Made by a program: the position numbers and the translations under genes. Below, one piece after another: positions 1-23,459 of a stretch of DNA of 64,000 bases (position 1 is its first letter; every line of letters starts with the position of its first letter). The DNA is taken from positions 124,001 through 188,000 of the forward strand of contig CDROCS010003925.1 in assembly GCA_977020255.1 (NCBI GenBank). Reading direction: 5' to 3'. The DNA comes from Obrimoposthia wandeli. Its lineage: Eukaryota. The notes beneath the pieces are model-generated. The model was not told where the DNA came from. It worked only from the letters and a program-made list of their open reading frames with translations, and made no database searches.

Positions 1-2
1 CA

Positions 3-2137
3 TTACAAAAAAATAAATATACAATCACAAAAACAAACCAAACTACTCAAACACAAGAAAAGAAAGTAAAACACAAGAAAAATCGTAAAAAAATAAAAAA
101 TCAAAAAACTAAAATTTTTAAGAATACAAATAATCTTAATAAAATGATGAAAAAATTATGGAAAATTATCCAGATAATATTAATAATATGTCTAATTATG
201 AACATGATAAAACCAATTAATGCTTTAGAAGCATATGATTGTTCAAAATATAAAATTCAAAATAAATATTCTTTAATGGATTTACAGCAATGTGCAGACG
301 CTGACCCAAATGAGGTAAAAATCCAAAATACTAAGTTGTATCAAGTATATCAGGAAACAGATTTCATATATGCAGAAGTTTTCGAATGTAGAGTACATGT
401 AGAGACATTTATAACATATTGTGGACAACATAGTCACAATTCAATAGTAAAACCAGCATTAGGAAAAACACCAATAATAGTTGACGCTTTAAATTGTAAA
501 GATGCTTTTGCAACAGGAGAATTGAGAATAGATAGAGAAATTAAAGTCCGAGCGGCGACACATAAAATAATTCAACAAATGATATCAGTAGTAGGTACGA
601 TTAAATCTGATGGAGAATGTACAACAGGAACTTATGTAGTAATGGGAGTTAAGCAAAGTGGTTTGGTAGTTATTAAAAATTTTGAAGTCGAACTAAGAAC
701 TTTCAAAGCAACATTCGACCCCTCAACAAACACAATGGTAACAATGCCATTTTGTGAAGCAAACATGGGTCACTGTAACACGGGTTCTTCAATACTTTAC
801 TACAAAGTAAAAATCGATCAATGTAAATTAATACATTTAAAATCAGAAACTTTTCAAATAATTCAAGGAAAAAGATTTAGAGATGATCCGGAACTAGATC
901 AACAGGTTCCAAAGGACATACACAAAATATATAGAACTAGAAAAATACGTAAAACACCAACTCCAACTATATTAATGTCTATTGAACAAGGATCAGGAAT
1001 GCGATTTATTAAAAAGAAAGAGGAATCCCGATGTGGACACTCTGTTTATACAACTAATTATAAAGGAATATATTTGAGTAATGAAAAAATACAAAATGCA
1101 AAAACGACACCAACTAAATTTGATATTAAAAATTATGATTATTTTAACAATAAATTAGATTATTTTTATCATAAAGGACTAATGACAATAGAAGCAATAT
1201 ATAGAGAAACCATAATGAATGATTGTAAATTAAATCAGGAGATATTAAAAACGAAATTGGCAATTATTGCTACTAACCCAGAATTAATAACACCATTATT
1301 ACCATTAGCTGACGGTACTTTTGGAAGAGTAATGGGAGAAGTGTTATACACTTATCAATGTAAAAAGTAATAGTTAACATAAGAAATCATCAAAAATGTA
1401 CAAAAGAATTACCAATTTCTTACAAAAATAATTCATTATTTGTAGAACCAATCACTAGAATCATACTTTTTAACACTTTTAGCATAAAAGAAATAAACTG
1501 CTCAAACATAATGGCACCTCATTATCAAATTTCAAAAGATATTTGGATTTCACTTCCAAGAAGAGATATTGTCGCAGAACCACAAAAATTACAATTAACC
1601 ACTCTCAGCAACGACATCAATATACAATCAGATAACGAATTAAACACAAAAGGAATTTATATACAAGAAGATATAGATAAGTTAAGAAAAGAAATTTTAT
1701 TTCCACAAATAAGATCCAGAATTTTAACACAAATCATAGAAAGATCAGTACCTGACGGAATTAGCCGTCCCGATTACGACTTATTACTTTCTCCAAATCA
1801 TTTTATAAAAGCCACTAAAAACACCATGTCAAAAATATGGGGTAAATTTTTAATTTTTGGACAAGCATTTTCTGGATTAGTTGGAATTTATGCTCTACTA
1901 ATTTGCTTTAAGATTCTACTAAGTCAAGTTTTATCAACATATTATATTTATAAAGTTGGAGGATTAACATGGAAATTAATCTTAGGATGTTTTCCATTTT
2001 TGGCAAAATTCCTTATTTTTAATCATCATCAAAACATAGTAAATACATTATCAAATGAAATGCGAGAAACAAATATACAAAAATTACAAATACCAAAGAA
2101 ACAGAAAAAACGGAATCTTCACAATATCCTGATTTAG
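3..2137 (+). CDS. Chuvirus-like / herpes gB-like class III fusion glycoprotein (one frameshift at ~1365; frame open from window start)
   Basis: Hydrophobic signal (KIIQIILIICLIMNMIKPINA) then AYDC..SLMDLQQC, YCGQHSHNSIV, CKKVIVNIRNHQKCTKELPI..FVEPITRI (restored by adding one A at 1362-1366), and C-terminal hydrophobic segments. This Cys pattern is typical of chuvirus-type G proteins. Confidence 0.8.
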
Positions 2138-3990
2138 AAAAATATATAGATAAAACAACTATACAAAAATCAACTGCACCAACAATATATACAATAAATC
2201 AAAAAGATAACGATAAACGACCATATGTAAAGGTAGAAATTAACGAATATAAACTTAAAGCTTTAATTGACACAGGATCAAGCGTAACAGTTTTAGACGA
2301 ATCTTTCTTAAAAACACAACAAAAATTACTTCTTCTTAAGGAAAATAGTCAAGTCACAGCAGCAAACGGTCAACCCGTAGATATAATAGGAAAATTAGAC
2401 TGTCTTTTTAAAATAGGAAATAAATACATAAAAATACCTACAAGAATAATGAAAAATTGTCCTTGCCAAATGATCATAGGAATAGATACATTAAGAAGAT
2501 TAGGAAATAATTTTCACTTTGATTTTGAAAAAAATCAAATAAAAGACATTTACAGACCTAATGCCAAAGATGAATACGAGTTAGAAATAAAAGGAGATAT
2601 CATTCTCCAACCAAGAACAGAAACAATGTTACAACTAGAAACTAACATAATCACAGAAAAAGATGTATTATTTGAACCTTATAAATATCAACAAGAAACC
2701 TTAAACTACGTTTTGCCAAATATAATTTGTAAAATAAAAAACAACACAATACCAATCAGAATCCTAAATGCAGACATTAATGAAATTCATCTCAAGGAAG
2801 GAGTACGTCTTGGAAAAATAAGTGTTATTGAAAATATTGAATTAATAGATAATGAAAAAATAGAAGATAAATCTACGATAAATTTTAACGATATTAAATT
2901 AAATGATTATGAAAAATCAAAACTTAAAACTTTAACAGAAAAATATGATGTAATATTTGCTAAAAATGAATACGATTTAGGTCGAACAAATTTGATAAAA
3001 CATAATCTTCCATTAACAACAAACACAGCAATAAAACAACGACCCTACCGAATTCCATATGCCTACAGAGATGAGGCTCAAAGACAAATAAAAGGAATGT
3101 TAGAAAATGAAATTGTTAGAAGAAGTTTTTCTGCATGGACATCACCTGTTGTTTTAGTAAAAAAGAAAGATGGTTCTTTGAGATTTTGCGTAGATTACAG
3201 AAAACTAAACGAAGTCACTCACAAAGATACTTATCCACTGCCAAGAATTGATGAAATATTAGACAAACTAAAAAATGCACAAGTATTTACAACTTTGGAT
3301 TTACAGAGTGGATACTGGCAAATAGAAATTGAGGAGTCAGATAAATATAAAACAGCTTTCTCAACAGGAGAAGGATTGTATGAATTCAATGTCTTACCAT
3401 TTGGATTAACCGGAGCTCCAGCAACATTTCAGAGATGTATGAGCCATATCTTAATGGATGCAGATCACGTAATGGTATATATCGATGACATTCTTATTTT
3501 TTCAAAAAATTTTGAAGAACATTTAAAAGATTTAGAAAACGTATTCTTAAGATTACAGGTAGCAGGATTAAAACTAAAACCAAAGAAATGTGAATGGATA
3601 AAAGATAAAGTAAATTACTTAGGACATGCTGTATCAGCAAAAGGAATACAACCAGACGAGAGTAATGTAGAAAAGATTAAAAATTTTCCAATCCCAAAAA
3701 CAGTAAAAAATATACAGGAATTTTTAGGGCTTGCAGGATATTATCGAAGATTTATTAGAAATTTCGCACAAATAGCAATACCATTAAATAAACTTATTAA
3801 AAAAGATGAAAAATTTGAATGGGAAAAAGAACAACAAGAATCTTATGAATATTTAAAACAAAAACTAATCGAAAAACCTATACTTAGATATCCTAATTTT
3901 AATAACTCATTTTTAGTTATGACTGACGCCAGTGGTTATGCGTTAGGAGCAGTTTTAGGACAACAGGAAAGTAACGAAAAGATCATGTGA
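2059..3990 (+). CDS. Pol: aspartic protease + reverse transcriptase + start of RNase H
   Basis: Frame of ORF 2449 is open back to 2059 and encodes RPYVKVEINEYKLKALIDTGSSVTVL; RT motifs LDLQSGYWQI, PFGLTGAPATFQR, YIDD; MTDASGYALGAVL. Confidence 0.95.
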   Translation, partial: NARNKYTKITNTKETEKTESSQYPDLEKYIDKTTIQKSTAPTIYTINQKDNDKRPYVKVEINEYKLKALIDTGSSVTVLDESFLKTQQKLLLLKENSQVTAANGQPVDIIGKLDCLFKIGNKYIKIPTRIMKNCPCQMIIGIDTLRRLGNNFHFDFEKNQIKDIYRPNAKDEYELEIKGDIILQPRTETMLQLETNIITEKDVLFEPYKYQQETLNYVLPNIICKIKNNTIPIRILNADINEIHLKEGVRLGKISVIENIELIDNEKIEDKSTINFNDIKLNDYEKSKLKTLTEKYDVIFAKNEYDLGRTNLIKHNLPLTTNTAIKQRPYRIPYAYRDEAQRQIKGMLENEIVRRSFSAWTSPVVLVKKKDGSLRFCVDYRKLNEVTHKDTYPLPRIDEILDKLKNAQVFTTLDLQSGYWQIEIEESDKYKTAFSTGEGLYEFNVLPFGLTGAPATFQRCMSHILMDADHVMVYIDDILIFSKNFEEHLKDLENVFLRLQVAGLKLKPKKCEWIKDKVNYLGHAVSAKGIQPDESNVEKIKNFPIPKTVKNIQEFLGLAGYYRRFIRNFAQIAIPLNKLIKKDEKFEWEKEQQESYEYLKQKLIEKPILRYPNFNNSFLVMTDASGYALGAVLGQQESNEKIM

Positions 3991-5715
3991 TAGCATATGC
4001 GAGCAGAGGTCTTAAAAAACATGAAAAGAATTACTCAACGATAGAAAGAGAATGCCTAGCTATTTGTTTCGCAATGGAACATTTTAAACATTACTTATTA
4101 GGTCGAAAGGTTTATGTTTACACAGATCAAAGACCATTACAATGGCTTTTAAATCATAAGGATACAACATCTAGATTAATGAGATGGGCATTGATTTTAC
4201 AAAAATATGATATTGAAATAAAATATAGAAAAGGAAAATCTAACGCTAATGCAGATTGTCTATCACGAATAAGAGAAGAAATAAACGAAATAACTGCAAA
4301 TGACATCGAATTAAATCTTTTTACAATAATTCAAGCTAAATATGATGAAAAAGTAATAACTAAACTTCAAAGCAAAGATAATGAAATTCAGCAAATAACT
4401 AAATACATTAGCACAAACGAAGTACCAACAGATGAAAAATTAAGAAAACATTTAAAAATTCACGAATCACGATACAAATATAGTAATGAAATATTATATT
4501 ATTTAAATGACAAAAATCTATATTCACTAGTTATTCCTAAAGAAATTCAGTGTCAATTACTTCTTCAATATCATAATGGAGCCCTAGGAGGACATTTATC
4601 ATCAAAAAAACACATTCACGATTAAATTTAAAATACTATTGGATTAACATGAAAGAAGATGTAAAAAATTGGTGTAAAACATGTGAAATATGTCTTAAAC
4701 GGAAAAATACTTTACGTACCACAAAAATACCTTTAAAGCCAATACCTTATCCATCAGCCCCCATGGAAACTGTTGCCATGGATGTAATGGGACCATTACC
4801 TGAAACACCCCGAGGAAATCGATATATAATAGTATTTTCTGATTATTTTACAAGATGGCCAGAGGCTTTTCCAACACATGATCATAAGGCTGAAACCATC
4901 GCGAAGGTTTTAGTCGAAAAAATTATTTTTACTTTCGGTACACCCCGAAAATTATTAACCGACAAAGGTCCTGAATTTATAAATAATGTATTAGCGTCAA
5001 TAGCTGAAATTTTTCACATAAAAAAGATCAATACAACACCATATCACCCTCAAACTGACGGGTTAGTAGAAAGATTTAATAGAACCCTCGAAGATATGAT
5101 GGCATCATACACAAACAACAATCAAACAGATTGGGATTTACACATACCTCCATGCCTTTTTGCATATAGAACATCAGTACATGCATCCACAGGAGAAACA
5201 CCTTTTTATCTTATGTTCCTCAGAGATCCTCAAATGCCTATTGATCTAACATTACTACAACCTACTACACAATATTTAGAAATACCTGAATATAAAATAG
5301 AAATTAGAGAAAGAATAAAACTAGCATTCGAAAAAGCTAAACTATTTGTAAAAACATACAAGAAAATTACAAAGAATATTATGATAGAAGAACTAAGCCA
5401 TCAAATATAAAAAGCGGAAGTAAAGTGATGATTCACAATCCACAAATTAATGTAGGATTGTCTCACAAATTATCAAAACCATACAAAGGACCATATACAG
5501 TCATTAGTACCAACGGAACCAACATAACAGCTAAACTAGATAATGAATCAAAATCAAAAGAAATAAGAGCACATATAAACAGATGTCGAGAAATACCTGA
5601 GGAGAATACAAAAGTAAAAAGTCACAAATATAACTTAAGATCAACTAATGATAATACAGTTCTACAAATGTTGACAATAAAAAACTCACAAAAAAACAAA
5701 ACAAAACTATTTTGA
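3987..5715 (+). CDS. Pol continued: RNase H + integrase with GPY/F C-terminal domain (frameshifts at ~3980, ~4610, ~5350, ~5415)
   Basis: IAYASRGLKKHEKNYSTIERECLA; YHNGALGGHL; WCKTCEIC; VAMDVMGPLP; LLTDKGPEF; YHPQTDGLVERFNRTL; KLSKPYKGPY; YNLRS. Confidence 0.95.
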
Positions 5716-6984
5716 GTCATCAAACCAGAAATACAATAAAAATATCAATAAAAGAAATTGGTAAAATAATGATGTTATTGATAATATATTTTATAATAAA
5801 ATATAACCTACTGAAAGTAAACGCAACAAACATAAATGACAATCAATCAATCATACAACAACAAACAAATAAATTCGACTCAACAACTCATCTCATAAAA
5901 AATTTTGGATTAATAACAATAATACCTGAAATCACATCAATAAAGTTAAAAATTTCTCTTCTTACAAACAAAACAGGAAATGTGCAAATCACACAAACAG
6001 ATAGAAAACAAAATATAATTATTTCAGAAATAAAATCACAAAAATATACAATACCATTTTTAAGAACAGAAACACAATATAAAATAAGAATTAAGTCGAA
6101 ATTAAAAAATATAACACTCTATGAAAGAATTATAGAAACTCACATATACCTAGCATCAATATTAAAAACAACAGCAAAATATATATCAAAACATAAAATA
6201 ATGATAAAATGGGAATTTCAACTAAAAATAGATGACTTAGATAAAGCCCTCATTAGAATTAGATATAGAGGATATAATGATCATTTTTGGAAAGACACAG
6301 AAAAACAATTAGAAAAAACACAAATCAGAACAAATTTAACCATAGAAAATATAAGATATCCAGAGAAAATAATAATGAACAATAGAGAATGCGTAATTAC
6401 TAATAAACCAATAATGTACAGACAATGGAGTCAAAAGTTTGAAAGTTATAAAAATTTAACAAAATTAACAATTTTAGGAAATAAGATATCCAAACTATAT
6501 CAACCTATAATTTTTTTGTGGTCGTTGGTCAACGGTAAAAATTAAGAAATATGTGAAAGATTTAACCACAAAACAATTGCTACATACCACAACATTTACA
6601 TCAAAAATTTACAGAATTACAAATCAAGTTGAAATTACGGAAAAAATAAGAATTAAATTAAAATTAAAAACAACAGAAATAATATCCTATAAATCATTTA
6701 ATGAAAGTTTAAAAATGCACTATAGTAAACAAGAACATTCAAGGAATGAAAATAAAGAAGAACTTATAATAATAGTTATAGTAATCGAAATAATTACATT
6801 TATAAATCAAATATCATGGAAAATGTTAATTTTGAAACATACAAAAACGATAGAAACAAAACAACGAAAACACTTTTGTGGGCCCCCAGGCCCTTTTACT
6901 GTTTATATTATTCCTAAGGATGATAATTCTTCAGAATTATCCATAAATACTGTAATAGAAAATAGAAAAAGAAATATAACATAA
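5655..6984 (+). CDS. Accessory type-I membrane protein with FN3-like repeats (frameshift at ~6515)
   Basis: Internal signal-like stretch MMLLIIYFIIKYNLLKVNA; FN3-like motifs YTIPFLRTETQYKIRIKS, IMIKWEF..IRIRYRG...WK, CGRWS; hydrophobic ELIIIVIVIEIITFI near the C-terminus. Confidence 0.55.
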
Positions 6985-7180: not shown

Positions 7181-7576
7181 ATGAACAGATTGGCAAAAAC
7201 TTGTAAAAAATGCAAAAAATTAGAGAAAAAGATTCGAGATGTTTCCAGACAGCATGACGACTACTATATAAAGATCACAACTCAAAATGAATCACTGAAA
7301 CAGTTAATAAAACAAAGTGTGAAAGAAAAATTGAATAATGATTTAACAATTGACGAACTAGAAGGGAGATTGGCACATAGTTTTGGCAGAATAGACAATT
7401 TAATACAACAAACTTTAAGTCAACGATCAACTATAGCCTCATTAAGAAGACAAATGATGACCTATAGCGACATGATAAACTTTTATTTGACCATTAATCC
7501 TACTATCCCAACTAATACAACACTTGATGATGGATATGACTCGGATATAAACATTGGTGAACAAAATTCTGGTTAA
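7181..7576 (+). CDS. Retroelement accessory coiled-coil protein, unknown function
   Basis: Intact 131-aa ORF starting with CxxC (CKKC) and showing heptad-like periodicity; lies between INT and the LTR. Confidence 0.5.
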   Translation: MNRLAKTCKKCKKLEKKIRDVSRQHDDYYIKITTQNESLKQLIKQSVKEKLNNDLTIDELEGRLAHSFGRIDNLIQQTLSQRSTIASLRRQMMTYSDMINFYLTINPTIPTNTTLDDGYDSDINIGEQNSG

Positions 7577-7881
7577 ACTATAATCATACATCCTTCTTTT
7601 GTACAAATTGTCTAACTTTTGTTAATAAGTTTATTTTCATGACAAATCCCACATACTGCATGGATAAGACTGATATTTTTATAACTTTAAGACTGTGAAA
7701 TAATTATATTATTTTATTCAACTAACAAATCTATTAAAGCAGAATGGATAACAATCACCTGGATACGACTCCAGACCAGCTCACTCGGTCAGATCAAACA
7801 AAAAGCACAGCAAAGATAGAAAGAGGAAAAACGGAAAATATGCCAGAAAGGCTGATTTTAGGAAAATTCTTGTAACACAAG

Positions 7882-8911
7882 ATGCGTCAGTTTAGCAGTG
7901 CATACTTTAGAAACAACGGAGGAAGAAAAATGTTTTCAAATCAAACATTTCTTCCTAATAAGTTAAAATTACCACAGAAGAAAGAACTAGCGCACTTATT
8001 TTTACCAATGAAAAGAGACCAACCCATATGGCTCTCAGTGAAATATTCCCCAACATTAATTGTGAAAAAATAGATATTCACGTGGCACTAGGAGTAGCTC
8101 ATCTAAAAACCAAATCAGATAAGACATTAAATTTTCTGATGATAGGAAATCACACCTACACCTTACAAGCAGCTCAATTAGAAAATCAATATAGCATAAA
8201 AATAGGAAGAGGACCAAATCTATTATTTATAGAAAACATAAGAAGAGCAGAAGAACCTCAACAAATAACCCTTTTTGAATTAAAAACGCACAGAAACCAG
8301 CAATTTTATTCCTCGATTGCGAAATGGTGATATCAGTAGATAAACAGCCAGTTTTAGCAAGTGTGTCTATTATAAACTACATAGGTAACGTAATTATAGA
8401 TACACTGTGCGTAACTAGAGACAGAGTAAGAAATTACGTTACTAGAATAACTGGACTGTCGGATAGAAAGTTACAAGGATGTAGAGATGCTGATGAAGTA
8501 ATCGAGGAAGTAAAAAACATTGTGTATGGTAACATCATAGTAGGTGTGGGACTAACAAACGATTTAAAAGCTTTACGCCTACAGAAATGGATGTTATTCA
8601 ACATTGTTGATTTAGGAATATCCAAAAGCATAAAATCAGAACTAAATCACAATCACCCAAATATTGGACTCGCCAACATGGTGCGGAAATACTTAAATAT
8701 AGAAACACAAAAAGGAGTCCACACTAGCATGGAAGATGCAAATCACACCCGAAAAATTTTCATGATGAAGGAGGAAATGTTGATTAGAGAGTTTGATTTG
8801 ACCGAGGTGATGAATCCACCATCTTGCGAGAACAACCCCAGTTCATCGTTATCACATATGACCGGAAACTCGGAGTCCGGTACACAAAACTCCCCGATTT
8901 TGTTGGATTAA
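7882..8911 (+). CDS. Accessory protein with C-terminal REX4/ISG20-like DEDDh 3'-5' exonuclease (frameshifted; exonuclease at 8279-8911)
   Basis: Frame of ORF 8324 extends upstream to ILFLDCEMV; then LASVSII, YVTRITG, IIVGVGLTNDLKAL, HTSMEDA, giving the complete DEDDh set. Confidence 0.8.
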
Positions 8912-9121: not shown

Positions 9122-9988
9122 TGTTGAGAAAAAATATTGAATAATTGTGTTAAAAAAGAAAAATAAAAATATAAATTTTTAAGGAAATGGAAGAAAAGGG
9201 AAAATTAATAAATTAAAAGTTAATTGGGAACTTTCCTTAATTAGGGAAAAGTTCCGATTTTAGGATTTGTGCACTTTGGCATTTTAGTCAATAGAGTGGT
9301 CAATCTCCGACGGGAAAAAAGCCCGTTTCGCCCTGCCGGGCTCATCAGGGAGATGGCGTGTTATCTCTGACTTCGCGGTAGATTCCGCGAAGCCAGAGAT
9401 AACAATAATAAAGCCAGGGAAAAGATTCCCCTTTCATGTGCCGACGAATATCGTCGACATATGATGTTGTTGTGCACAAATGCACAATTCAACAACACAC
9501 ACACACGCACAAACACACACGAACACAAATTTAGACGCACATACTACTCACTCACTTCTCATTCACTACTCACTCACTATTCATTCACTCACTCTCCCTA
9601 CTCACTCACTCACCTATCTATTGTGCACATGTGTGTGTATGTTTAAATTAAAATTTTTCCGCCTGCCCAGAGTTCGACAGGCGGTGGATTTTCCCGGCTG
9701 CACATGTGAGTGTGTGCAGAGCCGGGAAATATCGGTTCTTCTCCTCTCTGCCCAGATTTATCCAGTATGTGTGCAGCGGTTGGATATTTGGGCTGCACAC
9801 TGCTAGGTGAATATGTACAAATAATAATAAAAAGTCAGAAACAGAAAGTTATTATTATCAAACGGTTGTTGATTTCTCTGTCTGACTGCTGAAATCGTTT
9901 TTCCTCAACTGTCTACCGCACTGTGCTGACTGGATTTTCCCTTCGCTGTGTATCTCTAAACAGATCAGGATAGTTGAATCTGTCTACA
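9122..9988 (+). repeat. Probable 3' LTR
   Basis: Purine-rich GACCCGGAGGA immediately before TGTTGAGA; ends TGTCTACA; internal AATAAA (~9826) followed by a GT-rich stretch; CACT microsatellite at 9545-9612. The 5' LTR is not in the window, so this cannot be confirmed. Confidence 0.55.
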
Positions 9989-10064
9989 GAAATTCAATTT
10001 AAAGGACTGATTTTGTGAATTGGATCACACTATTTTAATTTGATTAAAAACCATAATATTTAGA

Positions 10065-10442
10065 TAACGGAAATTGATTATTACAACTACATATTATTGC
10101 CTGAAAACCTAACGGAAATTGATTATTACAACTACATATTATTGCCTGAAAACCTAACGGAAATTGATTATTACAACTACATATTATTGCCTGAAAACCT
10201 AACGGAAATTGATTATTACAACTACATATTATTGCCTGAAAACCTAACGGAAATTGATTATTACAACTACATATTATTGCCTGAAAACCTAACGGAAATT
10301 GATTATTACAACTACATATTATTGCCTGAAAACCTAACGGAAATTGATTATTACAACTACATATTATTGCCTGAAAACCTAACGGAAATTGATTATTACA
10401 ACTACATATTATTGCCTGAAAACCTAACGGAAATTGATTATT
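10065..10442. repeat. 45-bp tandem array, 8 full identical units plus a partial unit
   Basis: TAACGGAAATTGATTATTACAACTACATATTATTGCCTGAAAACC repeated at 45-nt period with no spacers. Confidence 0.97.
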
Positions 10443-10841
10443 GTTTGTTACCTGAATAAAAATTACTTCTTCATCTACTCGTTTATTAACACATATACAT
10501 AATCAGGAATGTAAAATCCCAAAATATTTTTCAATTGATCAATATCAGTTATTGTTAAAATTTCGATGAGATATTTATTCTGCACTTTTGATATTTTCAC
10601 AGGATTCATAACTCGTACAATTTGATGCCTCTTTAATATATTACATAGTTTTCATTTTGAAATTCTTTCTGAATAATAAAAATTTGCTACATATCTCTTA
10701 TTCATTCTAAAATAAGGAAACTGATTAAAAACAATGTTTATAAAAAAAATACATATAAGATACAAATAAGATACAAATAAAATTGATTATTAAATGAAAG
10801 AAACATAGTAAAACCGATTACAATTTATTACACGCAAAAAG

Positions 10842-11318
10842 TTAAAACATAGAAATATGAGCACGTTCAATTTTCCACATAGTCAACTTTGTTCCCATTT
10901 CATCTTTCTTGTAACCATAAAGTCGAATTGTTAGAGTCCATTGCTTCTTTTTCGGAAATGCATCAATATCAATATATCTTCCATAGTCATCTAGAAATGC
11001 TTCATCGGCTCCTTGGATATAAAATTCGTTCTTATTAAAAGTAAAATTTGGAACTGCCTTTTCTATTTTCTGTTTAAGATATTGAAAATCAGGTTTTTGA
11101 ATACCTGATAGATAGTAGCTGAACTTTCTTCTTTCAATTGTCACAGGATTTACTAAAGCAATCAGTTGAGCCTTCTTCAAGAATCTGACTTTGTATTTGA
11201 AATATTGTTTCACTTCTTCATACATATCCTTATCCGATTCTTCAAACATTTCTTCGTCATCGCTTAATACCCGTTGGCTATCATCCATTGTTGATAATTG
11301 TCTTTGATATGAATGCAT
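10842..11318 (-). CDS. Polinton protein of unknown function (possible OB-fold ssDNA-binding protein)
   Basis: Intact ORF with TATAAA at 11355-11350 upstream; homologous coding remnant at ~44640-44836; beta-rich C-terminus WTLTIRLYGYKKDEMGTKLTMWKIERAHI. Confidence 0.6.
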   Translation of the reverse strand: MHSYQRQLSTMDDSQRVLSDDEEMFEESDKDMYEEVKQYFKYKVRFLKKAQLIALVNPVTIERRKFSYYLSGIQKPDFQYLKQKIEKAVPNFTFNKNEFYIQGADEAFLDDYGRYIDIDAFPKKKQWTLTIRLYGYKKDEMGTKLTMWKIERAHISMF

Positions 11319-11535
11319 TTACTGTGATTTGTCCTCCAATGGTGCATTCTTTTATACTAATTTCTAACAAAGACATGAATCTCATTGGTTAATATAACTA
11401 AGCATTGAATTTTATTGGACTAAATATATCATCCAATTATAATAGGTTTGCAAGATAATTACAAGAAACGTGCAATAAAAAAGCAGGTTCAGACATATAT
11501 TAAAAAAAGATTTTACAGAATACAATTTCAGTCTA

Positions 11536-12043
11536 ATGAAACTCGTAAATATAAATTATAAAGGTAGAACAGAAGATGATGTTTCGTACTTACCATTCAA
11601 TGAATGGAAGTCGAGACAATATGTAGAAAAGTTTGACAATTTCACAGTTGTTATTTTTCCTACAGGTTAGTTTTTATTTTATTTTCATATTGAATTCTTT
11701 AGGAAATTGTCGTGTTATGGGATGCAAAATACCAATGCTTGGGTTCAATTTACCATTTGGAATTCAAATCACTGCAATACAATCAATCACGATTTCGGCT
11801 AATCTCGGGAAACAGATAAATCTTTTTAAAACTGCAGAGAAAATGAAAGAAGAATGCATGTTTGAACCAGAAATTTTTCCTGCTCTCAGTTATTTGAAGT
11901 TTAAACCGCTATGTGTAAATATATTTTCCAGTGGTAAAGTTATGATATTGAGATTGAAAAATTTTGATTATCCAGACATAGTTGATTTTAGAAAATATAT
12001 CTTATTACATCTTGTTATCTTTTCTATAAACAAACCCGTTTAA
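11536..12043 (+). CDS. TATA-binding-protein-like protein, join(11536..11665,11703..12043)
   Basis: Removing a 37-nt GT..AG intron gives TVVIFPTGNCRVMGCK (repeat 1) and IQSITISANLGKQINL..FEPEIFPALSYLKFKPLCVNIFSSGKVMIL (repeat 2). TBP has TALIFSSGKMVCTGAK and [34 protein letters not shown]. Confidence 0.8.
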
Positions 12044-12057
12044 ACTTATTGTTTTGA

Positions 12058-12330
12058 ATGAATAATACTATAAATAGAGACAATGAAGTGGATCGGCTTG
12101 CCGATGAAATATTTTCTGGAAAAATTAGGGGTAAAGAAATTTTATCAGAATTAAAAAATAATGATATAACAAGAGATAACATTGAAATATTGGTTAGATC
12201 ACACGTTATTCGAGAATTTAGAAATCGTACACAAATAAATAAAATTATAGCCAAATATTCATTAATTAATTTTTGTATTTCATCTACAATAGCTCTAACA
12301 TTGTACATTTCAATAAGGAAACTTCTATGA
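12058..12330 (+). CDS. Small protein with C-terminal hydrophobic anchor
   Basis: Intact 90-aa ORF, helical and charged, ending YSLINFCISSTIALTLYISIRKLL; TATAAACAA lies 33 nt upstream. Confidence 0.55.
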   Translation: MNNTINRDNEVDRLADEIFSGKIRGKEILSELKNNDITRDNIEILVRSHVIREFRNRTQINKIIAKYSLINFCISSTIALTLYISIRKLL

Positions 12331-12367
12331 TAATATAAACAATATTAAAAATGAAAGAGTATATGCA

Positions 12368-13015
12368 ATGGAGCTAAATAATAATGCTGTATTTCAAATA
12401 GTTGGCCCAAGTGGAAGTGGAAAGACACATTTCGTCTGTAAATTGTTGCAAAATGAATCTCTTTTCAAATCTAGTTTCAAAAATATTTATTGGCATCATG
12501 GTGGAGGAGGGGAAAGAGGGTTAACCAAAACAGAAGTTTGCAAGTTGAAGGGTATAAAATTTATTGAAGGATTTGATGCAAATTGGTGTGAAAGATTGAA
12601 AAAAGAAGATGTAATAATAATTGATGATTTGTATGAGGAGGCTAACAAGGAATCGGACTTTAATCATTTATTTACAAAGATTGCAAGACATCGTGAAGTT
12701 ACAGTTATATTTATCACTCAAAATCTGTTTCGCCAAGGAGGTCACCATAGAACAAGAAATCTTAATGTACATTACTTAGTTTTATTTAAAAATCCTAGAG
12801 ATCAAACAGTTGTTGATTTTGTGGCCAGACAGGCATTTCCTCAAAATAAGAACTTTCTAGTTGATTCATTCCACGATGCTGCTGAACAAGCACATGGTTA
12901 TATATTTATTGACTTTACGCAAGCTTGCCCAGATGGTATACGTGTTTTAACAGACATATTTAATTCTAAGGGAGTAACTGTTTATAAACATATAGAGAAC
13001 AATTATAAAAAATAA
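12368..13015 (+). CDS. A32/FtsK-like genome packaging ATPase
   Basis: Walker A GPSGSGKT, Walker B IIIDD, ARHREVTVIFITQNLF, RTRNLNVHYLVLFKNPRD. Confidence 0.95.
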   Translation: MELNNNAVFQIVGPSGSGKTHFVCKLLQNESLFKSSFKNIYWHHGGGGERGLTKTEVCKLKGIKFIEGFDANWCERLKKEDVIIIDDLYEEANKESDFNHLFTKIARHREVTVIFITQNLFRQGGHHRTRNLNVHYLVLFKNPRDQTVVDFVARQAFPQNKNFLVDSFHDAAEQAHGYIFIDFTQACPDGIRVLTDIFNSKGVTVYKHIENNYKK

Positions 13016-13194
13016 ATTCGCAATGCCTTTTCCAAAGTTGATAGTAAAACGTAAAGTAAAATCTAAGAAATCAAAAAAAAAGAATCATTAAGAAAAAAGA
13101 AGGGAAAATATTAATCAAATCTGTAGTTAGAAATAAAAAAAACTTAAATGGCTTCGAATATAAACAATATTTAAATTAAACCTTTTTTATTAAA

Positions 13195-13524
13195 ATGAAG
13201 AAAATACAAAGAAGCATACCCTATTTTAAAGCTTTAGTCAAAGCCTCTTCTAATAAGAGAATGATTATTCTTAAAGCATTTCCATCCTTTGTTGTAGATG
13301 ATTTATTGGAAGTTTTGTATAATATAGTTTTGGGTCGAGTAAAAGTTGGAAATCGGAAAAATATATTATATAAATATAGAAAAACTCTTCTAGATATTGC
13401 TAATGTAAAAAGTAAAAAAAGGAAAAGAAATATTATTCTTAAACAGAATGGTGGTTTCATAGGGGCTGTTATTCCAGTTGTTGCTTCAATTATCAGTAGT
13501 ATTATAGCTGCGACACGTTCATAA
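13195..13524 (+). CDS. Small basic virion core protein with adenain-type cleavage site
   Basis: Lys-rich; ends KQNGGFIGAVIPVVASIISSIIAA, the QxGGF + amphipathic tail seen in small Polinton proteins. Confidence 0.7.
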   Translation: MKKIQRSIPYFKALVKASSNKRMIILKAFPSFVVDDLLEVLYNIVLGRVKVGNRKNILYKYRKTLLDIANVKSKKRKRNIILKQNGGFIGAVIPVVASIISSIIAATRS

Positions 13525-13617
13525 ACAATTATTTATAAAATCGGCCAGACAGGCAAGATATGGGTGCTAGCCCTTCTTTACCTAAACTTAAATTTTCTTT
13601 CTATTCAAATTGTTGTA

Positions 13618-14630
13618 ATGGAGAAGATATGATTCAATCCAAAAGATCCAATTGGCTACACAGGAGTCTCAAAATTAGCAAAAAGAACAAAACAAAAATA
13701 CAAGAAAACGCAGAAATGGCTGAGCAACCAGTTAGCCTACAGTCTGAACAAACCGATGAGAAGAAGGTTTCCAACTAGAGCTTACAAAACCAGCGGTCCT
13801 AATAATTTATGGAAATGGATTTGATGGAGATGATCCCATATTCTTCCATTAATAAGGGATATCGATACATTTTAACATGTATTGATGTATTTAGCAGGTT
13901 TGCTTGTGCATTTCCAGTTAAAGCAAAGTCTTCAATAGCTATGCTTGAAGCCATTAAAGAAATATTAAAAGAGGACATTCCACAAAATATGCAAACTGAT
14001 TTAGGAAAAGAATTTTATAATAAGCAAGTTCAATCATTATTTAAACAAAATAATATAAATCATTACTCTGTGTTTTCACAATACAAAGCAGCAGTAGTAG
14101 AAAGATTTAATCGTACTCTAAGAGATCGAATAAAAAAGTATTTCACAAAAGAAGGAAATAAAAAATGGATCCAAGTTATACCTAAAATAATACATGCATA
14201 TAATCACTCTGAACATAGAGGTCTCAAGGGAATGAGACCTGTTGATGTTACTAATAAAAACTCTATGGACATTTGGATGAACAGGAAAAAAAAGAAAAAA
14301 TTAAAAAAGCTAAATATAAGAAAAACGAATATGTTCGAATTTCGAAAAATAGCTCTACTCCATTTATTAAAAACTTTGATCAGAATTGGAGCGATGAAAT
14401 ATTTTGTATAAGTAAAATTGATAAAAAGAGTAATCCAATAATGTATACTATTAAAGATGCTGACAATAATATCGTTCACGGTAAATTTTACGAGCAAGAA
14501 CTACAAGTAATATCAAATGAAGTAGTATTCAAAAAATATTAAAATCTAAGGGTACAGGTAAAAATAAACAATACTTTGTTAAATGGCATGGTTATTCAGA
14601 CCCAACTAGGATATCAGCATCTAATATAAT
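13618..14630 (+). pseudogene. Polinton retroviral-like integrase with C-terminal chromodomain-like region (stop and frameshifts)
   Basis: FNPKDPIGYTG..., MDLMEM, YILTCIDVFSRF, QTDLGKEFYN, KAAVVERFNRTLR, YNHSEH, GKFYEQEL, YFVKWHGY. Confidence 0.92.
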
Positions 14631-15581
14631 ATGAATTCTATGTATATGGTTTTACCAAGTAACGGATGTCCGAAGACTCAACCAGATAATGACGCTAGTA
14701 GCTTTATTATCGATTGGGAAAATCCTATAAATCTCCAAGGAGAATGGGAAGCGGCTTTAACAGAATTTTCTTTTTATTATTCTCCAATTACTATCAAAAA
14801 AAACTCACATATCTCGTTTACAAAAGAAGTTGATAATGAAATAACAACTGAAGTTGTGATCGGGTTTGATAGTAAAGGACAATTCTATTACAATTGTATA
14901 GATAAAGAAGTGAAAGTAATATTTGAAAATAACCAAGTCAGATTTAAAAATCGATTAAAATTTCTTCAAGTTATTAAAATTAATTTTGAATCTAAAAAAG
15001 AAGCTCTTCAATTCAGTTTTGATAGTGAACAAACAGTAGCTCGTAATAAACGGGATATTGTCTCATCTAAATCGGTTAGAAATGTTCCTGGTAGAGTAGC
15101 AAAAGTGTTGTTACTTGAAACGAGACCAAAGACTGTAGTGGAACTGAAAACGTTTTCAAATGATTATAAAATAGATAGTGAAGTGAATTTCTGTAAATTA
15201 ATACAGAAGGAATGTAGTGAATATTTGGATAAATTTGAAACATTAAATGGTAAATTAACGTTTACAGTAAATAGCAATATAAAACAAGTTTCATTTGATG
15301 ATAAACTCGCTAAAAACCTTGGTTTAAACAGAAATACCTTTGAAACTCATACAATAAAAACCATAAAAGCTAAAAATAAGGCAAAACTTTTAAATGCTGT
15401 TAATCATTTATATATTTATACTAATTTAATAGAACCAACGCTTGTAGGAGGACAGCGAGTTCCACTTTTGAGAACAATATGGATATCTAAAAATGAAACT
15501 AGATATGGGGACGCTGTCGGTATGTGTATAGATCAACCAATTGTATCTTCTAGTTTCTCTCTTTTCTATAAACAATATTAA
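14631..15581 (+). CDS. Minor capsid protein (penton); C-terminus frameshifted and continuing to ~15660
   Basis: MVLPSN...N..SSF...PINLQGEWEAALTEF at the N-terminus; LYIYTNLIEPTLVGGQRVPLLRTI near the C-terminus. Confidence 0.88.
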   Translation: MNSMYMVLPSNGCPKTQPDNDASSFIIDWENPINLQGEWEAALTEFSFYYSPITIKKNSHISFTKEVDNEITTEVVIGFDSKGQFYYNCIDKEVKVIFENNQVRFKNRLKFLQVIKINFESKKEALQFSFDSEQTVARNKRDIVSSKSVRNVPGRVAKVLLLETRPKTVVELKTFSNDYKIDSEVNFCKLIQKECSEYLDKFETLNGKLTFTVNSNIKQVSFDDKLAKNLGLNRNTFETHTIKTIKAKNKAKLLNAVNHLYIYTNLIEPTLVGGQRVPLLRTIWISKNETRYGDAVGMCIDQPIVSSSFSLFYKQY

Positions 15582-15667
15582 AGTAAATATTAGAGATGAT
15601 TCCGGACAACTAATAGATTTCACGTACGGGGCCAAGACAAGTTTAACAATACATTTAAGAAAACAAA

Positions 15668-16045
15668 ATGGCGAATCCAGCAATAATTGAAGCTTATAGT
15701 CAAAGCCAACAAGGTGGAGAAGTACCATATTTTGTTGGTAAACAATACAGATCTGGCTGGCTTAGAACATTAGGTAGATTTGCCTTTCCTCTTTTAAAGA
15801 GACTCGGGCGATTTATATCAAAATTAGGAAAGGATTACCTTTCATCTAAGGACAACAAACTAATACCAACTTTTAAGAAGCATGCGCTTGATGAACTTGA
15901 TAATGTTTTACCTGAAGTTGCTAATTTGATTAGAAAACGTAAATCAAATAAAAGTCAAGGAGGTAGTGGATTTAAAAGTAAAAAGAAGCTAAAAATTAAT
16001 ATAAACAAACGTAAGAATGTTGAAGGAACAATATTTGCAAAATGA
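15668..16045 (+). CDS. Conserved Polinton basic/amphipathic virion protein
   Basis: QQGGEVPYFVGKQYRSGWLRTLGRFAFPLLKRLG, the Q.G.G / F.G..Q.G.G + amphipathic helix pattern; SQGGSG followed by a basic tail. Confidence 0.7.
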   Translation: MANPAIIEAYSQSQQGGEVPYFVGKQYRSGWLRTLGRFAFPLLKRLGRFISKLGKDYLSSKDNKLIPTFKKHALDELDNVLPEVANLIRKRKSNKSQGGSGFKSKKKLKININKRKNVEGTIFAK

Positions 16046-17270
16046 GTTGCGCCAAAACTGAATTGTGTATTTTTGATAAACCGCTTCCACAAGTAGTTGT
16101 AGATAATGCTTCCTTTGAAGAAATATTCCTAGTTAACTCAGTTTCAGGAACCACTTTAACCGATTTAGAATTTAATATTAATGGTTCCAATAGCGAGTAT
16201 TTAGATTTGAATGATACTTTGCTTTATGTTCAAATAAAAGTATTAAATCTGATGGTACTAATTTAGATGAAAATGCCGATGTAACACCTGTAAATTATCC
16301 CTTTAATTCTTTATTTAATGATGCCATTGTTACTCTTAATAATGTCAAAATTGAAGGTGGAAATTCTTCCTATGCTCATAAAGCTTTGATTGAAAGTCTT
16401 TTGAATTATAGTACTGATACTCAAAATACCAATTTGGCAACCATTGGTTACGATAAAACGGTCGCAACTCGCAAAGAATGGATTGCAGGTTCTAAAGCTT
16501 ACGAAATGTGTGGGTCTTTGAGATTGAATTTCTTTTAACAACAGAAATATTTAATTCCCGGTGTTAATGTACATCTTCGTTTGAAATGTAATAAATGGAA
16601 TTTTTCTTTGATAAGCACGGACATTCTAAAACCTAGACTTCATATTTTGGATGCAAAATTGTATGTTCGAAGAGTTAAAACCTAGCAATCAGTTTTAATG
16701 GCACATAATATAGGAATGGAAAAAAACAATGCTTGTTATCCTATTAGAGAAACTAAACTTATATCTTATTCTTTAGGTACGGGTACACAAGCCTTTAATA
16801 AGGATCAAATTTTTGGTGATGTAAGATTACCGAAATTCATTTTAATTTCTTTTCAAAAAACTGCAAAGTTTCTAGGAAATTATACGACAGATGCAACTCA
16901 ATTTGACAATCTTAGTGTAGGTTCAGTGACACTTTCAAGAAATACTGATTATCGCGAAACATATAAAACATATTTCGAAGGTGACGCTTATGCTTTGGCT
17001 TATACGCAATCTATTATTCGGAATTTGGGCCAACTAGATAAAAATATAAACAATGGTATTTCTTTTACTGACTTTAAAAACAGCTGCCCGTTCTTCACAT
17101 TTGTTTTGGCACCAGACTTTGATATAAACCAATGCCAACTACCAAAGGATGGAAATTTACGACTAGAAATTAAGTTCAATGCAGCTTTAACAAATCCTAC
17201 TACGGTGCTTATTTACAGAGTATTTGATTCGGAAATACAAATCAATAAAAACAGAACTGTCATATTATAG
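16042..17270 (+). pseudogene. Major capsid protein (double jelly-roll, hexon-like), disrupted
   Basis: KTELCIFDKPLPQ, LEFNINGSNSEYLDLNDTLLYVQIK, KYLIPGVNVHLRL, RLPKFILI, GNLRLEIKFNAALTNPTTVLIY; frameshifts and an in-frame TAA at ~16537. Confidence 0.9.
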
Positions 17271-17271
17271 A

Positions 17272-17651
17272 ATGGAGTAAGACATATTTTAAATTTTTAT
17301 TTATTAATTTTTATTTAGTTCAAAACAAGTAAAAGAATCAGCAGAGAAGGTCTTGGGTGATAAATTTAATGGAGTTTATCCTATTGATATGATTCCATTT
17401 TTCAATCTGGAGGTTACATTATCAATACTCATACTTCGAATTTACCAGGAGAACATTGGATAGCTATTTATGTTAGAGAGTGGACAATACATGTATTTGA
17501 TCCACTTGCAATGTATTATCCACACAAACTTGTTTCAACTATTCAAAAAGGACGAAGAAGAGTATTTTACAACAAGATACAATATCAGGATCCTGCGACG
17601 AGAAACTGTGGACATTTATGTATTTTATGGTTATCGTTGCAAAACAATTAG
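17272..17651 (+). pseudogene. Adenain-like cysteine protease with 42-nt intron (17277-17318) and one frameshift (~17400)
   Basis: Spliced start MDSKQV..FNGVYPID; then YIINTHTSNLPGEHWIAIY, VFDP, YQDPATRNCGHLC (His-Asp-Cys triad plus Gln). Confidence 0.85.
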
Positions 17652-17916
17652 TGTGTTATAAAAATAAAAATTTTAAATGTTTTATTTTGAATTATTTTTT
17701 AAATTTCTAAAAATATAAGGGTAAAATAATAAAAGACATAAGACAAATTTTTTTAATACATTTATTAATCACAACATCACAATGAGATATGTCAGCAAAG
17801 ATAAGGTCCATCCTAAAAAATGTATTGAAATAACAAATAAGTTAAAGTCTAGGTGCCATAGGGATCTAAAATTTTAAAAAATTAAACTAAAAAAAATAAA
17901 ATAAAATGAAAACCGT

Positions 17917-20900
17917 TTAAATTCTGAAGTGTCCATAAGCCAGGCTAGCGTTATTTTCTACCCAAAAGCGCTTGTCGTCATTACTACTCAAAGCGATTTT
18001 GGTTGATTTATGGGAATACAGTTGATGGGCTCTTGAAATAAATCTAGTTTGCTCAACGCTTTCAATACACCCAGTATCATAAACTTTCCGATAGGCCTCA
18101 TGTGTAAGATTGTTTCTTCCCACACCCTTTGCTCTCATTGAACATGTATTATTAGATGCATGTAAACTGTAGCATTTAGGGCGTAGGAAAATACAATCAT
18201 CATACGAAACCTGTCCCTCGCTTTCATCCTTAAATTTCCCGATAATCTCCTTTAAACTCATAGAGTGTAGAGGATGGTTAGCGGGATATTTATGGGTATC
18301 TAGTAAGTTATCCCTAAACATTACTGGTAATAATTGATTATTTAAACTAACATTCCTACATTCTAAAAAGAAAGAGTCAGTGTCCCCTGCCGCGATTTTG
18401 ATCTCACAATTAAATTCTTGTCGGTATTTCTCCAATTCTATGTATTGAAGCTCATACATTCTGAGTTTAGAAATGTCTAAAACCGTTTGACCTATATAAC
18501 TCGGTCGATCGAGACAAATACTCTGTTTTCCTAATAACACTGCTACCAAGTCATCTGCAATTGTAAAACTACGCTTGAAGTTGTACTTGCTAGTATATGT
18601 TATTAGTTTACGCTCATCATTGCAAAACCGTAGACAAATACGTTTCCGCAAGTCCTCTACAGTTTTTCCAAAGAGACTATTACTTTTTAACTTGTAAAAA
18701 TCTCGATCGAATTTGCTAGTGGCCAAATTACGTTTTCTTGAATTCTTCTCAATAAAGTCTTTTAACACAAAGTTTTGACTGAAGCTTATAGCACGATGAA
18801 TTCGAGTAACTTTCGCTCCCAACTTTAAGTAGAATTGAAGAAACCGCCAATGCACAACATAATTCAACTTGTCTTCATGGGTTAACAATAATTTCTTAAC
18901 CTTTGAATTAGGTGGGCATTGATGAACAGGCGCTACTGGAAGATCATCTAATTTATCATGCACATTGGAATGGATTTTTATGACCACCTCAACCAAATAG
19001 CCGACGTCGGATGAAACTGTATCAACAGTAGCCAAATCTGTCATCAACTTATTCAACTCTTCCTCATCATCAACCCACTTAAAGTTGGCATGAGGTAGAG
19101 GTTGAGTAAGCGCCCACCCATACAAATTATTAATATCGATGTACAGAATCTCCGTGGATTGATTTTTGACAACATGATGTTTGTTGACAAAAGTCATTCC
19201 ACCGCGTATACCATAATCATATATTTGATACATCGCGGGATCTTGCAGTAACTCGATATTAATTTTAAGAGTTTTTATTGCTGTTGCCCATGAGAGACCA
19301 GGTAAACTAAAGAAATGCATTGGATCTAGCCCATCTTCTGCTAAAGACTTTACACGAAAGGACTCAAAAAGATCAGCTAAAAGATAAATGTCTAACTTCA
19401 TATAATAAAGCATATATTCTAAAAGATTTCGACAATTATTCGCCCAAAATGTACGGGCCTCATTATAGTCTTGAAAACTTACACCCTCAAATTCAGTTAT
19501 GGGTGGGATTTTCAGTTGTATTTTCTACTCTGAAGCCGGTAGGTGAATACTCTCATACAGGTTGTGCAATGCTAAAATTGACTCAAAATCTGCATACACC
19601 CTGAATTCCACGGGTATGCATTTTGCCAAATCCCTGAATTTTAAATCCTTATCCTTAGGCATGCTATATAGCGTATTGTCATCAGGATTCAGTGAACATA
19701 AATCCCCTTATCGTTAACCGAAGCTGGGAACACTGACTGTATAATTGGCCATGCATTTAAAGATGCCGTTAAATTTTTTAAAGAACCACTCAAAAACTGC
19801 AGAGAATCTATGAATCTTAAACTGCAGAATTCAGTATATGCAGTTAAAGATAAATATTTCTCTGAAGTTTGAGGTATACATGAAATTTCCCAAGAGCTTA
19901 ATGTACCCAACGCGTATTTAAGTATATGATGCAAATCATATCCTTTGAGGTTATGAAACACAATGGGAATTCGTGGTTTTTTAGGAAGACGACGGCCAAG
20001 GTTACAAAGGTTGCACGCCGCTCCCAAGTATCGCCCCGTAACATGATCGTGATCTCTGACTAACTTAGACTGGGTTCCACACAAATAACATAATCTTTAA
20101 GAATTAAAATTAACCCAGTCTATGCCTGTCATGATCATTGCTTGATGAGCATTGAGATCATACCACGGTTTGACAATTGTTGTTCCTAATTCCTCTAATT
20201 TTAACATAAAATCTAAAATACAATTTGGACCGGAAAATTTATGATACTGGGTAATATTGGGGCCTAAGAATAGTAGTTCTGCCGAAGCCGGTAGGTGAAT
20301 ACTCTCATACTGGTCGTGCAATGCTAAAATTGACTCAAAATCTGCATACACCCTGAATTCCATGGGTATGCATTTTGTCCAATCCCTGAATTTTAAATCA
20401 TTATCCTTAGGCATGCTATATAGCATATTGTCATCAGGATTCAGTGAACATAATGTCAGATGTTTGCTGTAAGAGATAAGTTTCCATTATTTAAATTTAG
20501 AAGATGATCTAAATTGGGAATTGCAGCATAATGGAATTTTTTATTATGTTCGAGCAAAATTAAGTTGACCTGAGTCCCCTCATTTTTGCTCCTATAAATT
20601 ACATCTACAAAAGGATTTTTAAAAATTTCTTCATCTGTTACATTAACTGGGATATCAGTATTATATTTGAATACATTAATACTCAAGTTATTAAGATGTT
20701 CAAATCTTGATATCGCAGTTAATTTAACAGGAAAAATTATTCCATGATACTGCAATTCATTTAAAAAAGGGGTATATTTACTGACACGCTCTCTATGCTC
20801 AGTAATTACTACCCTTTTGAGGATGGCCAACACGCTATACAGAAAGCAAAGGTTATCACTGTTTTGTACGTTAACAATGGAACGTGAAAGTTGAAGAGAT

Positions 20901-22518: not shown

Positions 22519-22614
22519 TAATTCAAATTGTCGGGGATTTAAATGAAGAAAGTGTTTGCTTATATACTAAAATTTATGCACACATGCTCTTTTCCAATTG
22601 GATTAAAAAATTGA

Positions 22615-22850
22615 ATTTATTCCTCCAATGAGAAGGATTGTTTATCTGTTATTGGTTGAAAAAAATAATTTTATTCCTCCAATTAATGAGAAGGATTGTT
22701 TATCTATTATAGGTTGAAAAAATAATTTTATTCCTCCAATTAAAGAGAAGGATTGTTTATCTATTATTGGTTGAAAAAATAATTTTATTCCTCCAATCAA
22801 AAGGCTTATTTGTAAATAAATGTAAAATTTTAATAATGAATTCCTCCAAT
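22615..22850. promoter_or_regulatory. ~60-bp tandem repeats rich in CCAAT boxes upstream of pPolB
   Basis: TTATTCCTCCAAT..GAGAAGGATTGTTTATCT.TTA(TTG)GTTGAAAAA repeated 3-4 times; GTATATAAG (minus strand) at 22567-22559, 42 nt before the ATG. Confidence 0.6.
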
Positions 22851-22862
22851 TAGAAGAATTGT

Positions 22863-23351
22863 TTATCTACATGTCAAGTAATAATAAGAAAGACTTAAAC
22901 ATTTTTTATATGCGCAATGGTCACCATGATTACGATATGGACAGCAAATATTTTGTGGAATTTTTAATAGATGATCACGTGAAATATTTAAAGTATTCAA
23001 CCTCAATTTAGGAAAATATTTTTTTAAAGTTATATATTTTTTGCCATCCATTTCATCTAAAACATAAAAAATTCCATTTTCAATATCAAAATTAGATTTA
23101 ATAGTATCGAAAATACATATTTCACAAAAAGCCTTATGTCCTTCTTTCCATTTTAATAAATGGAAATATTTACTTAGATATAAATTAGTAAATTTTTTCT
23201 TATAATCTAAACTTTTAAATGGGATATCTATATGAAATATGAAATGCAAAGGATGAAAAACGACGCATACATCCATAATACATAATTCTTTTATAATATA
23301 ATCCCCATTTTTGTTAATGAAAGCCTCAAAATCTATGATATATTCCTGCAT
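22863..23351 (-). CDS. DEDD-fold / Maelstrom-like nuclease domain protein
   Basis: IIDFEAF...IIKELC, HFIF..P, YFHLLKWKEG, GKK..L, CPYRNHGDHCA: an acidic ExoI-like motif plus Glu-Cys-His-Cys residues; ORF intact. Confidence 0.6.
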   Translation of the reverse strand: MQEYIIDFEAFINKNGDYIIKELCIMDVCVVFHPLHFIFHIDIPFKSLDYKKKFTNLYLSKYFHLLKWKEGHKAFCEICIFDTIKSNFDIENGIFYVLDEMDGKKYITLKKYFPKLRLNTLNISRDHLLKIPQNICCPYRNHGDHCAYKKCLSLSYYYLTCR

Positions 23352-23459
23352 AATTACCCAAATTTGTAGCAAATCCCGTTGTTTATAACGAAAAACTATT
23401 AATCAAAAATTTATTAAAATGACGAGGTAGTATTTAGACAATTTTATATTTAGACAATT

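Follow-up and report, generated by a model that had tools for sequence, protein, structure and literature searches.

In the planarian element Burro (GYPSM1), env was reported to lie in frame between gag and pol within a polyprotein, and the accessible text of that article calls this the first such case (Arkhipova and Yushenova 2019, PMC6431247). "Ancient errantiviruses" with the order GAG-ENV-POL and an envelope of the herpes simplex virus (HSV)/gB type have been described from Platyhelminthes, Nematoda and Bryozoa, with nine in flatworms, and Smed_errantivirus_1 was placed in cysteine-bridge class C1a (Chary and Hayashi 2026, available parts of PMC13524379). The same article cites Sacco et al. 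(2022) for non-canonical endogenous retroviruses (ERVs) of nematodes in which env and pol have changed places. The rotifer long terminal repeat (LTR) elements Juno and Vesta carry a DEDDy exonuclease as open reading frame (ORF) 3, and extra ORFs of the coiled-coil and transmembrane (TM) kind have been reported too (Rodriguez et al. 2017, available portion of PMC5408684). Here we describe a family of gag-env-pol elements in Obrimoposthia wandeli, starting from the copy at the beginning of a 64,000-nucleotide stretch of contig CDROCS010003925.1 (the window; our contig C3925 of the 1.35-Gb, AT-rich genome). Positions below are window coordinates.

The window element belongs to a young Ty3/Gypsy family of very high abundance, of which it is a defective copy, deleted at its 5' end and broken in frame. 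An earlier reading of the window from its letters alone (the sequence-only reading) had treated an envelope ahead of pol as an exception not seen before; that order is already published for planarian Burro and for the GAG-ENV-POL errantiviruses, and to this headline arrangement the window family adds one more family. Its value is that of a compact, very young, high-copy case that allows the continuity of the frame to be tallied over individual copies and selection on the envelope to be shown. We propose that the family reads gag, a class III fusogen (G), protease (PR), reverse transcriptase (RT), RNase H (RH) and integrase (IN) in one frame, likely as a single polyprotein threaded through the membrane of the endoplasmic reticulum (ER), and we put the probability of this reading at roughly 0.8.

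Copies, reading frame and envelope of the family

Probing the genome with 601 bases over the G/PR junction yielded 1,461 candidates, and the 40 that were scored were 99-100% identical. Ten siblings, each recovered together with flanking sequence, measure about 14 kb and have LTR pairs 97.6-100% alike, and in all ten the 3' end of a host tRNA-Trp matches the primer-binding site (PBS), which is absent from the window copy. A 4-bp target duplication was present in 8 of 11 copies, the window copy included. ARAGORN detected no tRNA in the first four loci matching the primer-site pattern; four tRNA-Trp genes are present in locus L158 (contig C5734), a tandem array of such genes with a period near 207 bases. 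The LTRs, 1.07-2.0 kb long, themselves contain tandem arrays (10040-10460 in the window) whose unit varies between copies. Sibling gag has a capsid domain matching the Arc2 capsid (E 1.4e-4) and three CCHC motifs could be read in it, and a Pfam scan of this gag returned zero matches. The best solved match of the RT is the Ty3 RT (E 3e-81; others E 4e-49 and weaker). The pol order PR-RT-RH-IN, this RT match, the LTRs with PBS and target duplication, and the gag capsid with its CCHC motifs place the family in Ty3/Gypsy (Metaviridae). Counted from the first AUG, its long frame has about 2,760 codons.

That these domains share one frame was found by counting across copies. Between gag and the end of IN, the commonest length was a multiple of three in all 20 valid intervals, a set that excludes two intervals flanking a misplaced anchor (that stretch, inside G, was re-scored as one interval), and the same held for 15 of 15 intervals from IN to the final stop. 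A stop was the commonest codon in none of the codon columns with at least 8 copies. Among natural copies, uninterrupted frames of 1,328 codons (gag-G-PR) and of 1,923 codons (G-PR-RT-RH-IN and beyond) were seen, and the interval from the integrase end to a second signal-like segment was open in 25/34 copies. Minority indels were dispersed: 158 of 172 were single-base and 131 of 172 fell inside homopolymer runs of four or more bases, which make up 15% of all bases.

The G/PR junction was examined in 19 other copies, which had been chosen for their likeness to the window. The sequence-only reading had drawn attention to an overlap with a -1 offset at 2059-2137; the overlap is present in the window and is not the form of the family, since 13 of the 19 copies are in frame, 4 have the window's offset and 2 have another. 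G and PR might be separate ORFs linked by a programmed -1 frameshift at this site, as the offset in the window and in those 4 copies would allow; however, the 13 in-frame copies indicate that the offset is a homopolymer break and not a programmed shift, it resembles the other breaks in falling within a homopolymer run, and the frame is kept in the second family and in public relatives. In that second family of the host genome, whose G is about 41% identical to that of the window family, the interval from TM to PR was open in 17/30 loci; of the others, 7 carried a shift and 5 a stop, and 1 was missing. Among 20 public proteins scanned, 14 have a protease after G within one predicted protein, and relative P0005 holds the entire layout within 2,694 residues. 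On these grounds a programmed frameshift is largely rejected, and we consider it very improbable.

The assignment of G to class III, which the sequence-only reading had anticipated, is supported by its modeled fold. An unbroken natural sibling G, folded with 115 sequences, gave a mean predicted local distance difference test score (pLDDT) of 90.5, with a helix at 303-350. The five best solved matches of this model were herpesvirus gB (Z 8.3-9.9, VIA-align), modest matches, four of which span about 400 residues with a root-mean-square deviation of 6.5-7.8, followed by rabies G and Bourbon virus GP. In a viral structure library, the best matches were chuvirus and related glycoproteins (E 3e-42). 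A profile search with G had herpes gB in 36/37 rows, all weak (best E 0.005), and a plain sequence search against PDB gave zero matches. Both G pieces of the window match Pfam PF24664 Monjiviricetes_fusion (E 3.7e-40 and 3.6e-43), with best stretches at profile positions 4-207 and 385-630. These data support G as a class III (gB/chuvirus-type) fusogen by fold.

The whole G ectodomain is kept with its conserved cysteines, and the variants common to at least 3 copies within it are 19 synonymous versus 3 non-synonymous, which argues that G was under selection while the family spread. A signal-like hydrophobic segment ahead of AYDC/AFDC also occurs in relatives. Of 131 eligible rows, a quick G tree took in 61, namely every one of the 16 flagged as polyprotein and the first 45 of the remainder; in this tree, all 16 polyprotein-embedded rows fell in one 19-row group with a Shimodaira-Hasegawa-like approximate likelihood ratio (SH-aLRT) of 100, apart from 42 stand-alone rows. 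These results bear on whether G could be an insertion unrelated to the element, a chuvirus fragment that became integrated, or a neighboring element's 3' env. The nearest named viral structures, being those of chuvirus and related glycoproteins, would suit such an origin, but in 10/10 siblings a single LTR pair encloses gag, G and PR in that order, neither an LTR nor a stop follows G, purifying selection acts on it, and it groups with polyprotein-embedded relatives. On the LTR pair, the selection and the tree grouping, an unrelated insertion is rejected, and we regard it as hardly credible.

Proposed topology and a putative second membrane module

The topology proposed here draws on hydropathy, charge and knowledge of signal sequences. 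Gag would be made in the cytosol, whereupon the internal signal peptide would direct G to the ER lumen, with cleavage by host signal peptidase before LEAYDC; Gag would be held at the membrane by the cleaved signal until released. The TM would bring the chain back to the cytosol, placing PR-RT-RH-IN on the cytosolic tail of G, and RT-RH and IN would be released by the protease tethered there. Beyond IN, a second signal peptide would direct another ectodomain to the lumen, to be anchored by the last TM. Barring splicing or slippage, Gag, Env and Pol would arise in a 1:1:1 ratio at one and the same membrane, and the result would be enveloped particles able to pass between cells. If this topology is true, capsid, fusogen and enzymes are coupled via host signal peptidase instead of frameshifting and splicing, and the protease starts life tethered to the fusogen tail. 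The window family has one aspartic-protease-like domain after G; at least two such domains or motifs were seen after G in P0002, P0003, P0007, P0008, P0010, P0016 and the second family, and the extra ones could help a membrane-tethered protease to dimerise.

Several observations weigh against the threaded single-frame polyprotein. Its signal peptides and TMs come from hydropathy scans only, and cytosolic PR-RT-RH-IN requires that the weaker hydrophobic segment at 1964-2020 does not cross the membrane; if it did, Pol would be put in the lumen. None of 11 full-length stretches is open end to end. Inside G, two lengths tied 9 to 9 in one interval, which was open in 7/20 scored copies; PR to RT was open in 8/20, and the last gag interval, up to the signal peptide, in 20/37 (15 shifted, 2 with missing anchors). 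Independent contigs from five public runs, four of which are one sample that is possibly the source of the assembly, were compared with an in-frame sibling; single-base losses occurred in these contigs too, with a maximum of 32% of summed depth among the 12 of 98 indel rows listed, a set that does not include the window's G/PR site. Because such losses recur in independent contigs, some frame breaks may be real and shared. For the breaks of the window copy, the assembled contigs of public runs do not separate assembly error from decay.

The stoichiometry may also differ from that of one equimolar chain. Capsids normally need more Gag than Pol, and splicing, internal initiation or slippage on A runs could yield extra Gag or an envelope-skipping Gag-Pol from the same single frame. 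Shifts do recur at a few homopolymer sites (8/39 copies before the signal peptide, 8/19 inside G and 7/19 at G/PR), and the long frame is open for about 130 codons ahead of the first AUG in 9/10 full copies (e.g., L033:5800-6190), with a chance of about 1e-6 to 4e-6; 118 open codons precede the first AUG in one copy of the second family. This AUG-less N-terminal extension suggests that translation begins at a non-AUG codon or that the start is supplied by splicing or trans-splicing. However, the recurrent shift sites are spread along the whole frame, RT and IN included, as would be the case for homopolymer errors or decay, and single-frame gag-pol is common among Gypsy elements. We consider unequal products unlikely, though a serious contender.

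Another possibility is that the polyprotein is made as described and that G is no longer infective, its role being to provide a membrane anchor in assembly or in transfer within one animal. The literature covered yields no particle, fusion or transmission data, and transposition in the germline or in stem cells would be enough to account for the very high copy number. The counter-argument is that the full ectodomain and its conserved cysteines are kept and the shared variants are mostly synonymous, a constraint that exceeds what an anchor should need. A purely anchoring G seems to us rather unlikely.

Compared with the polyprotein proposed by the sequence-only reading, which ended with integrase, the order gag-signal peptide-G-TM-PR-RT-RH-IN in one frame was borne out in siblings, the second family and public proteins, but the frame ends beyond integrase, at 6984. 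Past integrase, the family frame encodes a second signal-like segment and then about 310 residues that include 7 sequons, followed by a predicted TM and a tail. Public relatives that reach past integrase (P0004, P0005, P0007 and P0018) have hydrophobic segments in the same arrangement, and their post-integrase ectodomains do not align to that of the window family. P0004, which has 2,627 amino acids (aa) and shares this layout, carries the NCBI label of hypothetical protein and is assigned there to a Flavobacteriaceae metagenome-assembled genome; it is probably animal DNA in a bacterial bin.

Atlas language-model features place the putative second ectodomain at 0.93 to fibronectin type III (fn3) clusters, and that of P0004 at 0.92, both with low recognition. 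The second ectodomain had no match in Pfam or, by sequence, in PDB, and its single-sequence fold reached a pLDDT of only 29. No relatives of it were found among the long proteins searched, which is weak evidence, and blastp against relatives of 1,000+ aa gave no match in this region. An FN3-like domain is a lead only. In the second ectodomain (5826-6762), shared variants are 14 non-synonymous versus 9 synonymous, as against 3 versus 19 in G; the counts are small, and the ratio is in keeping with a faster-changing surface protein. No description of an in-frame membrane protein after integrase was found in the literature covered, which did not extend to Repbase, figures or most subscription papers and took in the supplements of PMC13524379 only in part; the module may be new.

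More tentatively, and with somewhat less than even confidence, we suggest that these elements are reverse-transcribing viruses with the build of an RNA-virus polyprotein, whose chain crosses the membrane four times and supplies two surface proteins: a fusogen before the enzymes and a variable type I protein after integrase. The latter, FN3-like in the window family and unrelated in some relatives, would be a partner that can be exchanged and that serves attachment or host modulation, in the manner of gH/gL or attachment proteins for other fusogens. If this is true, the post-integrase membrane protein gives the elements a two-component surface.

The window copy and neighboring DNA

The first 4 kb of the window are divided in the ORF listing among three frames, 3-1370, 1364-2137 and 2059-3990. 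One glycoprotein is split between the first two, and the third contains protease and RT; RNase H and integrase follow downstream in additional broken frames, as detected in a Pfam scan of the window. The glycoprotein frame, which the sequence-only reading had followed from base 3 through a Lys-rich stretch, is indeed open from there, but it stops at 1370 and the rest of G is in the second frame. Other features it described are present: a predicted internal signal-like segment ending in INA before LEAYDC, a Cys-rich ectodomain followed by a hydrophobic C-terminus, and neither gag nor an LTR between G and PR. The gag it expected upstream of G, together with the PBS and 5' LTR, was retrieved in the siblings and is mostly deleted before the window copy. 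About 100 bases ahead of window base 1, a 558-bp piece of the 5' LTR abuts the last part of gag at a junction that occurs once in the genome; missing from the copy are the terminal part of the 5' LTR, the primer site and most of gag. The features are listed in Table 1.

Table 1. Features of the element in the window copy.
Feature	Position	Strand	Basis and remarks
gag end and Lys-rich linker	3-146	+	capsid, zinc knuckles and PBS deleted from window copy
internal signal peptide 1 (predicted)	147-224	+	hydropathy 2.0, net charge +5 ahead; predicted cleavage before LEAYDC
class III (gB/chuvirus-type) fusogen ectodomain	225-1876	+	PF24664, fold model; frame broken near 1360-1370
predicted transmembrane anchor (1877-1948) and second, weaker hydrophobic segment (1964-2020)	1877-2020	+	hydropathy 2.2 and 1.7
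G tail/linker to protease	2021-2217	+	frame broken near 2078 in window copy; in frame in 13/19 other copies
aspartic protease (DTGS)	2218-2511	+	PF13975/PF09668
reverse transcriptase (YIDD)	3040-3897	+	PF00078, E 1.5e-39
RNase H	3898-4208	+	PF17917/PF17919; frame broken near 3975
integrase (H2C2 finger, core, C-terminal part)	4533-5640	+	PF17921, PF00665; broken near 4607 and 5348
second signal-peptide-like segment	5769-5825	+	hydropathy 1.9; in frame with integrase in siblings; window break near 5689
second putative ectodomain, fibronectin type III-like (lead only)	5826-6762	+	7 N-glycosylation sequons; break near 6410-6520
second predicted transmembrane segment (6763-6819), tail, stop of long frame	6763-6984	+	hydropathy
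separate small ORF, 131 aa, coiled-coil-like	7181-7576	+	weak coiled-coil family matches; present in siblings
separate ORF of about 390 aa, DEDD-type exonuclease domain	7744-8911	+	PF00929, E 1.4e-7; broken in window copy; 389-aa form in sibling
3' LTR (TG...CA) with internal tandem array	9122-10491	+	99.8% identical to 5' LTR remnant over 558 bp
4-bp target duplication	10492-10495		directly after 3' LTR

Beyond the element, ORFs at 10842-23400 resemble by eye a Maverick/Polinton, with what we take to be a packaging ATPase (12317-13015), an integrase (13806-14411), a capsid-like protein (14625-17270) and a protein-primed polymerase (17917-19524). A coiled-coil, Glu/Arg-rich host-like exon is present on the minus strand at 31354-32109.

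Comparison with described elements

Burro is similar in having a Gag with two or three CCHC knuckles, then an env with matches to mononegavirus fusion glycoproteins, then PR-RT-RH-IN, according to the accessible text (PMC6431247). It differs in size and content, since the same text gives it more than 30 kb and an ORF of 4,873-5,140 aa with MATH, BIR, BCL2-like and ankyrin cargo, whereas the window family has about 14 kb and about 2,760 codons and is without Pfam matches to the cargo domains of Burro, and so lacks both its size and its apoptosis/ubiquitin cargo. A membrane protein after IN is not mentioned in the Burro text, its figure aside (PMC6431247).

The second family of the host is itself Burro-like (L105-L113; contigs C76, C6901 and C6390), with frames of 4,335 and 4,645 codons. 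Its domain order is gag, G, a protease motif, BIR, RING, a second protease motif, RT, RH and IN, and after IN come two dual-specificity phosphatase domains and then several hydrophobic segments.

The GAG-ENV-POL errantiviruses share with the window family a Ty3/Gypsy pol, a gB-type ENV between gag and pol, and many near-identical copies, as described in the available parts of PMC13524379. The ENV of Smed_errantivirus_1 resembles the window G by eye, a likeness seen without a tool alignment. This likeness and the presence of the Burro-like second family point to a triclad flatworm as the probable host. The main text of that article, in its available parts, presents the order of ORFs, with the words "fused" and "polyprotein" absent, and does not list a PBS tRNA for the Schmidtea errantiviruses, whereas the window family has a tRNA-Trp site (PMC13524379).

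In Juno and Vesta, the exonuclease ORF replaces env, as far as the available portion of PMC5408684 describes them, whereas in the window family it is additional to the built-in env. Anakin-type BEL/Pao elements have a glycoprotein of the same family (PF24664) but a BEL/Pao pol with G at its 3' side (Dezordi et al. 2020, accessible text of PMC7642597). The window family, in contrast, has G before PR, a Ty3-type RT and no BEL/Pao-type Pfam match, and is not of the BEL/Pao kind; relative P0043 has DUF5641 ahead of G. Nematode ERVs with a continuous gag-env-pro-pol frame were reportedly described by Sacco et al. in J Gen Virol in 2022; their hosts are nematodes, unlike that of the window family. 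In its working, the window element resembles a compact Burro relative, and it fits the GAG-ENV-POL errantiviruses.

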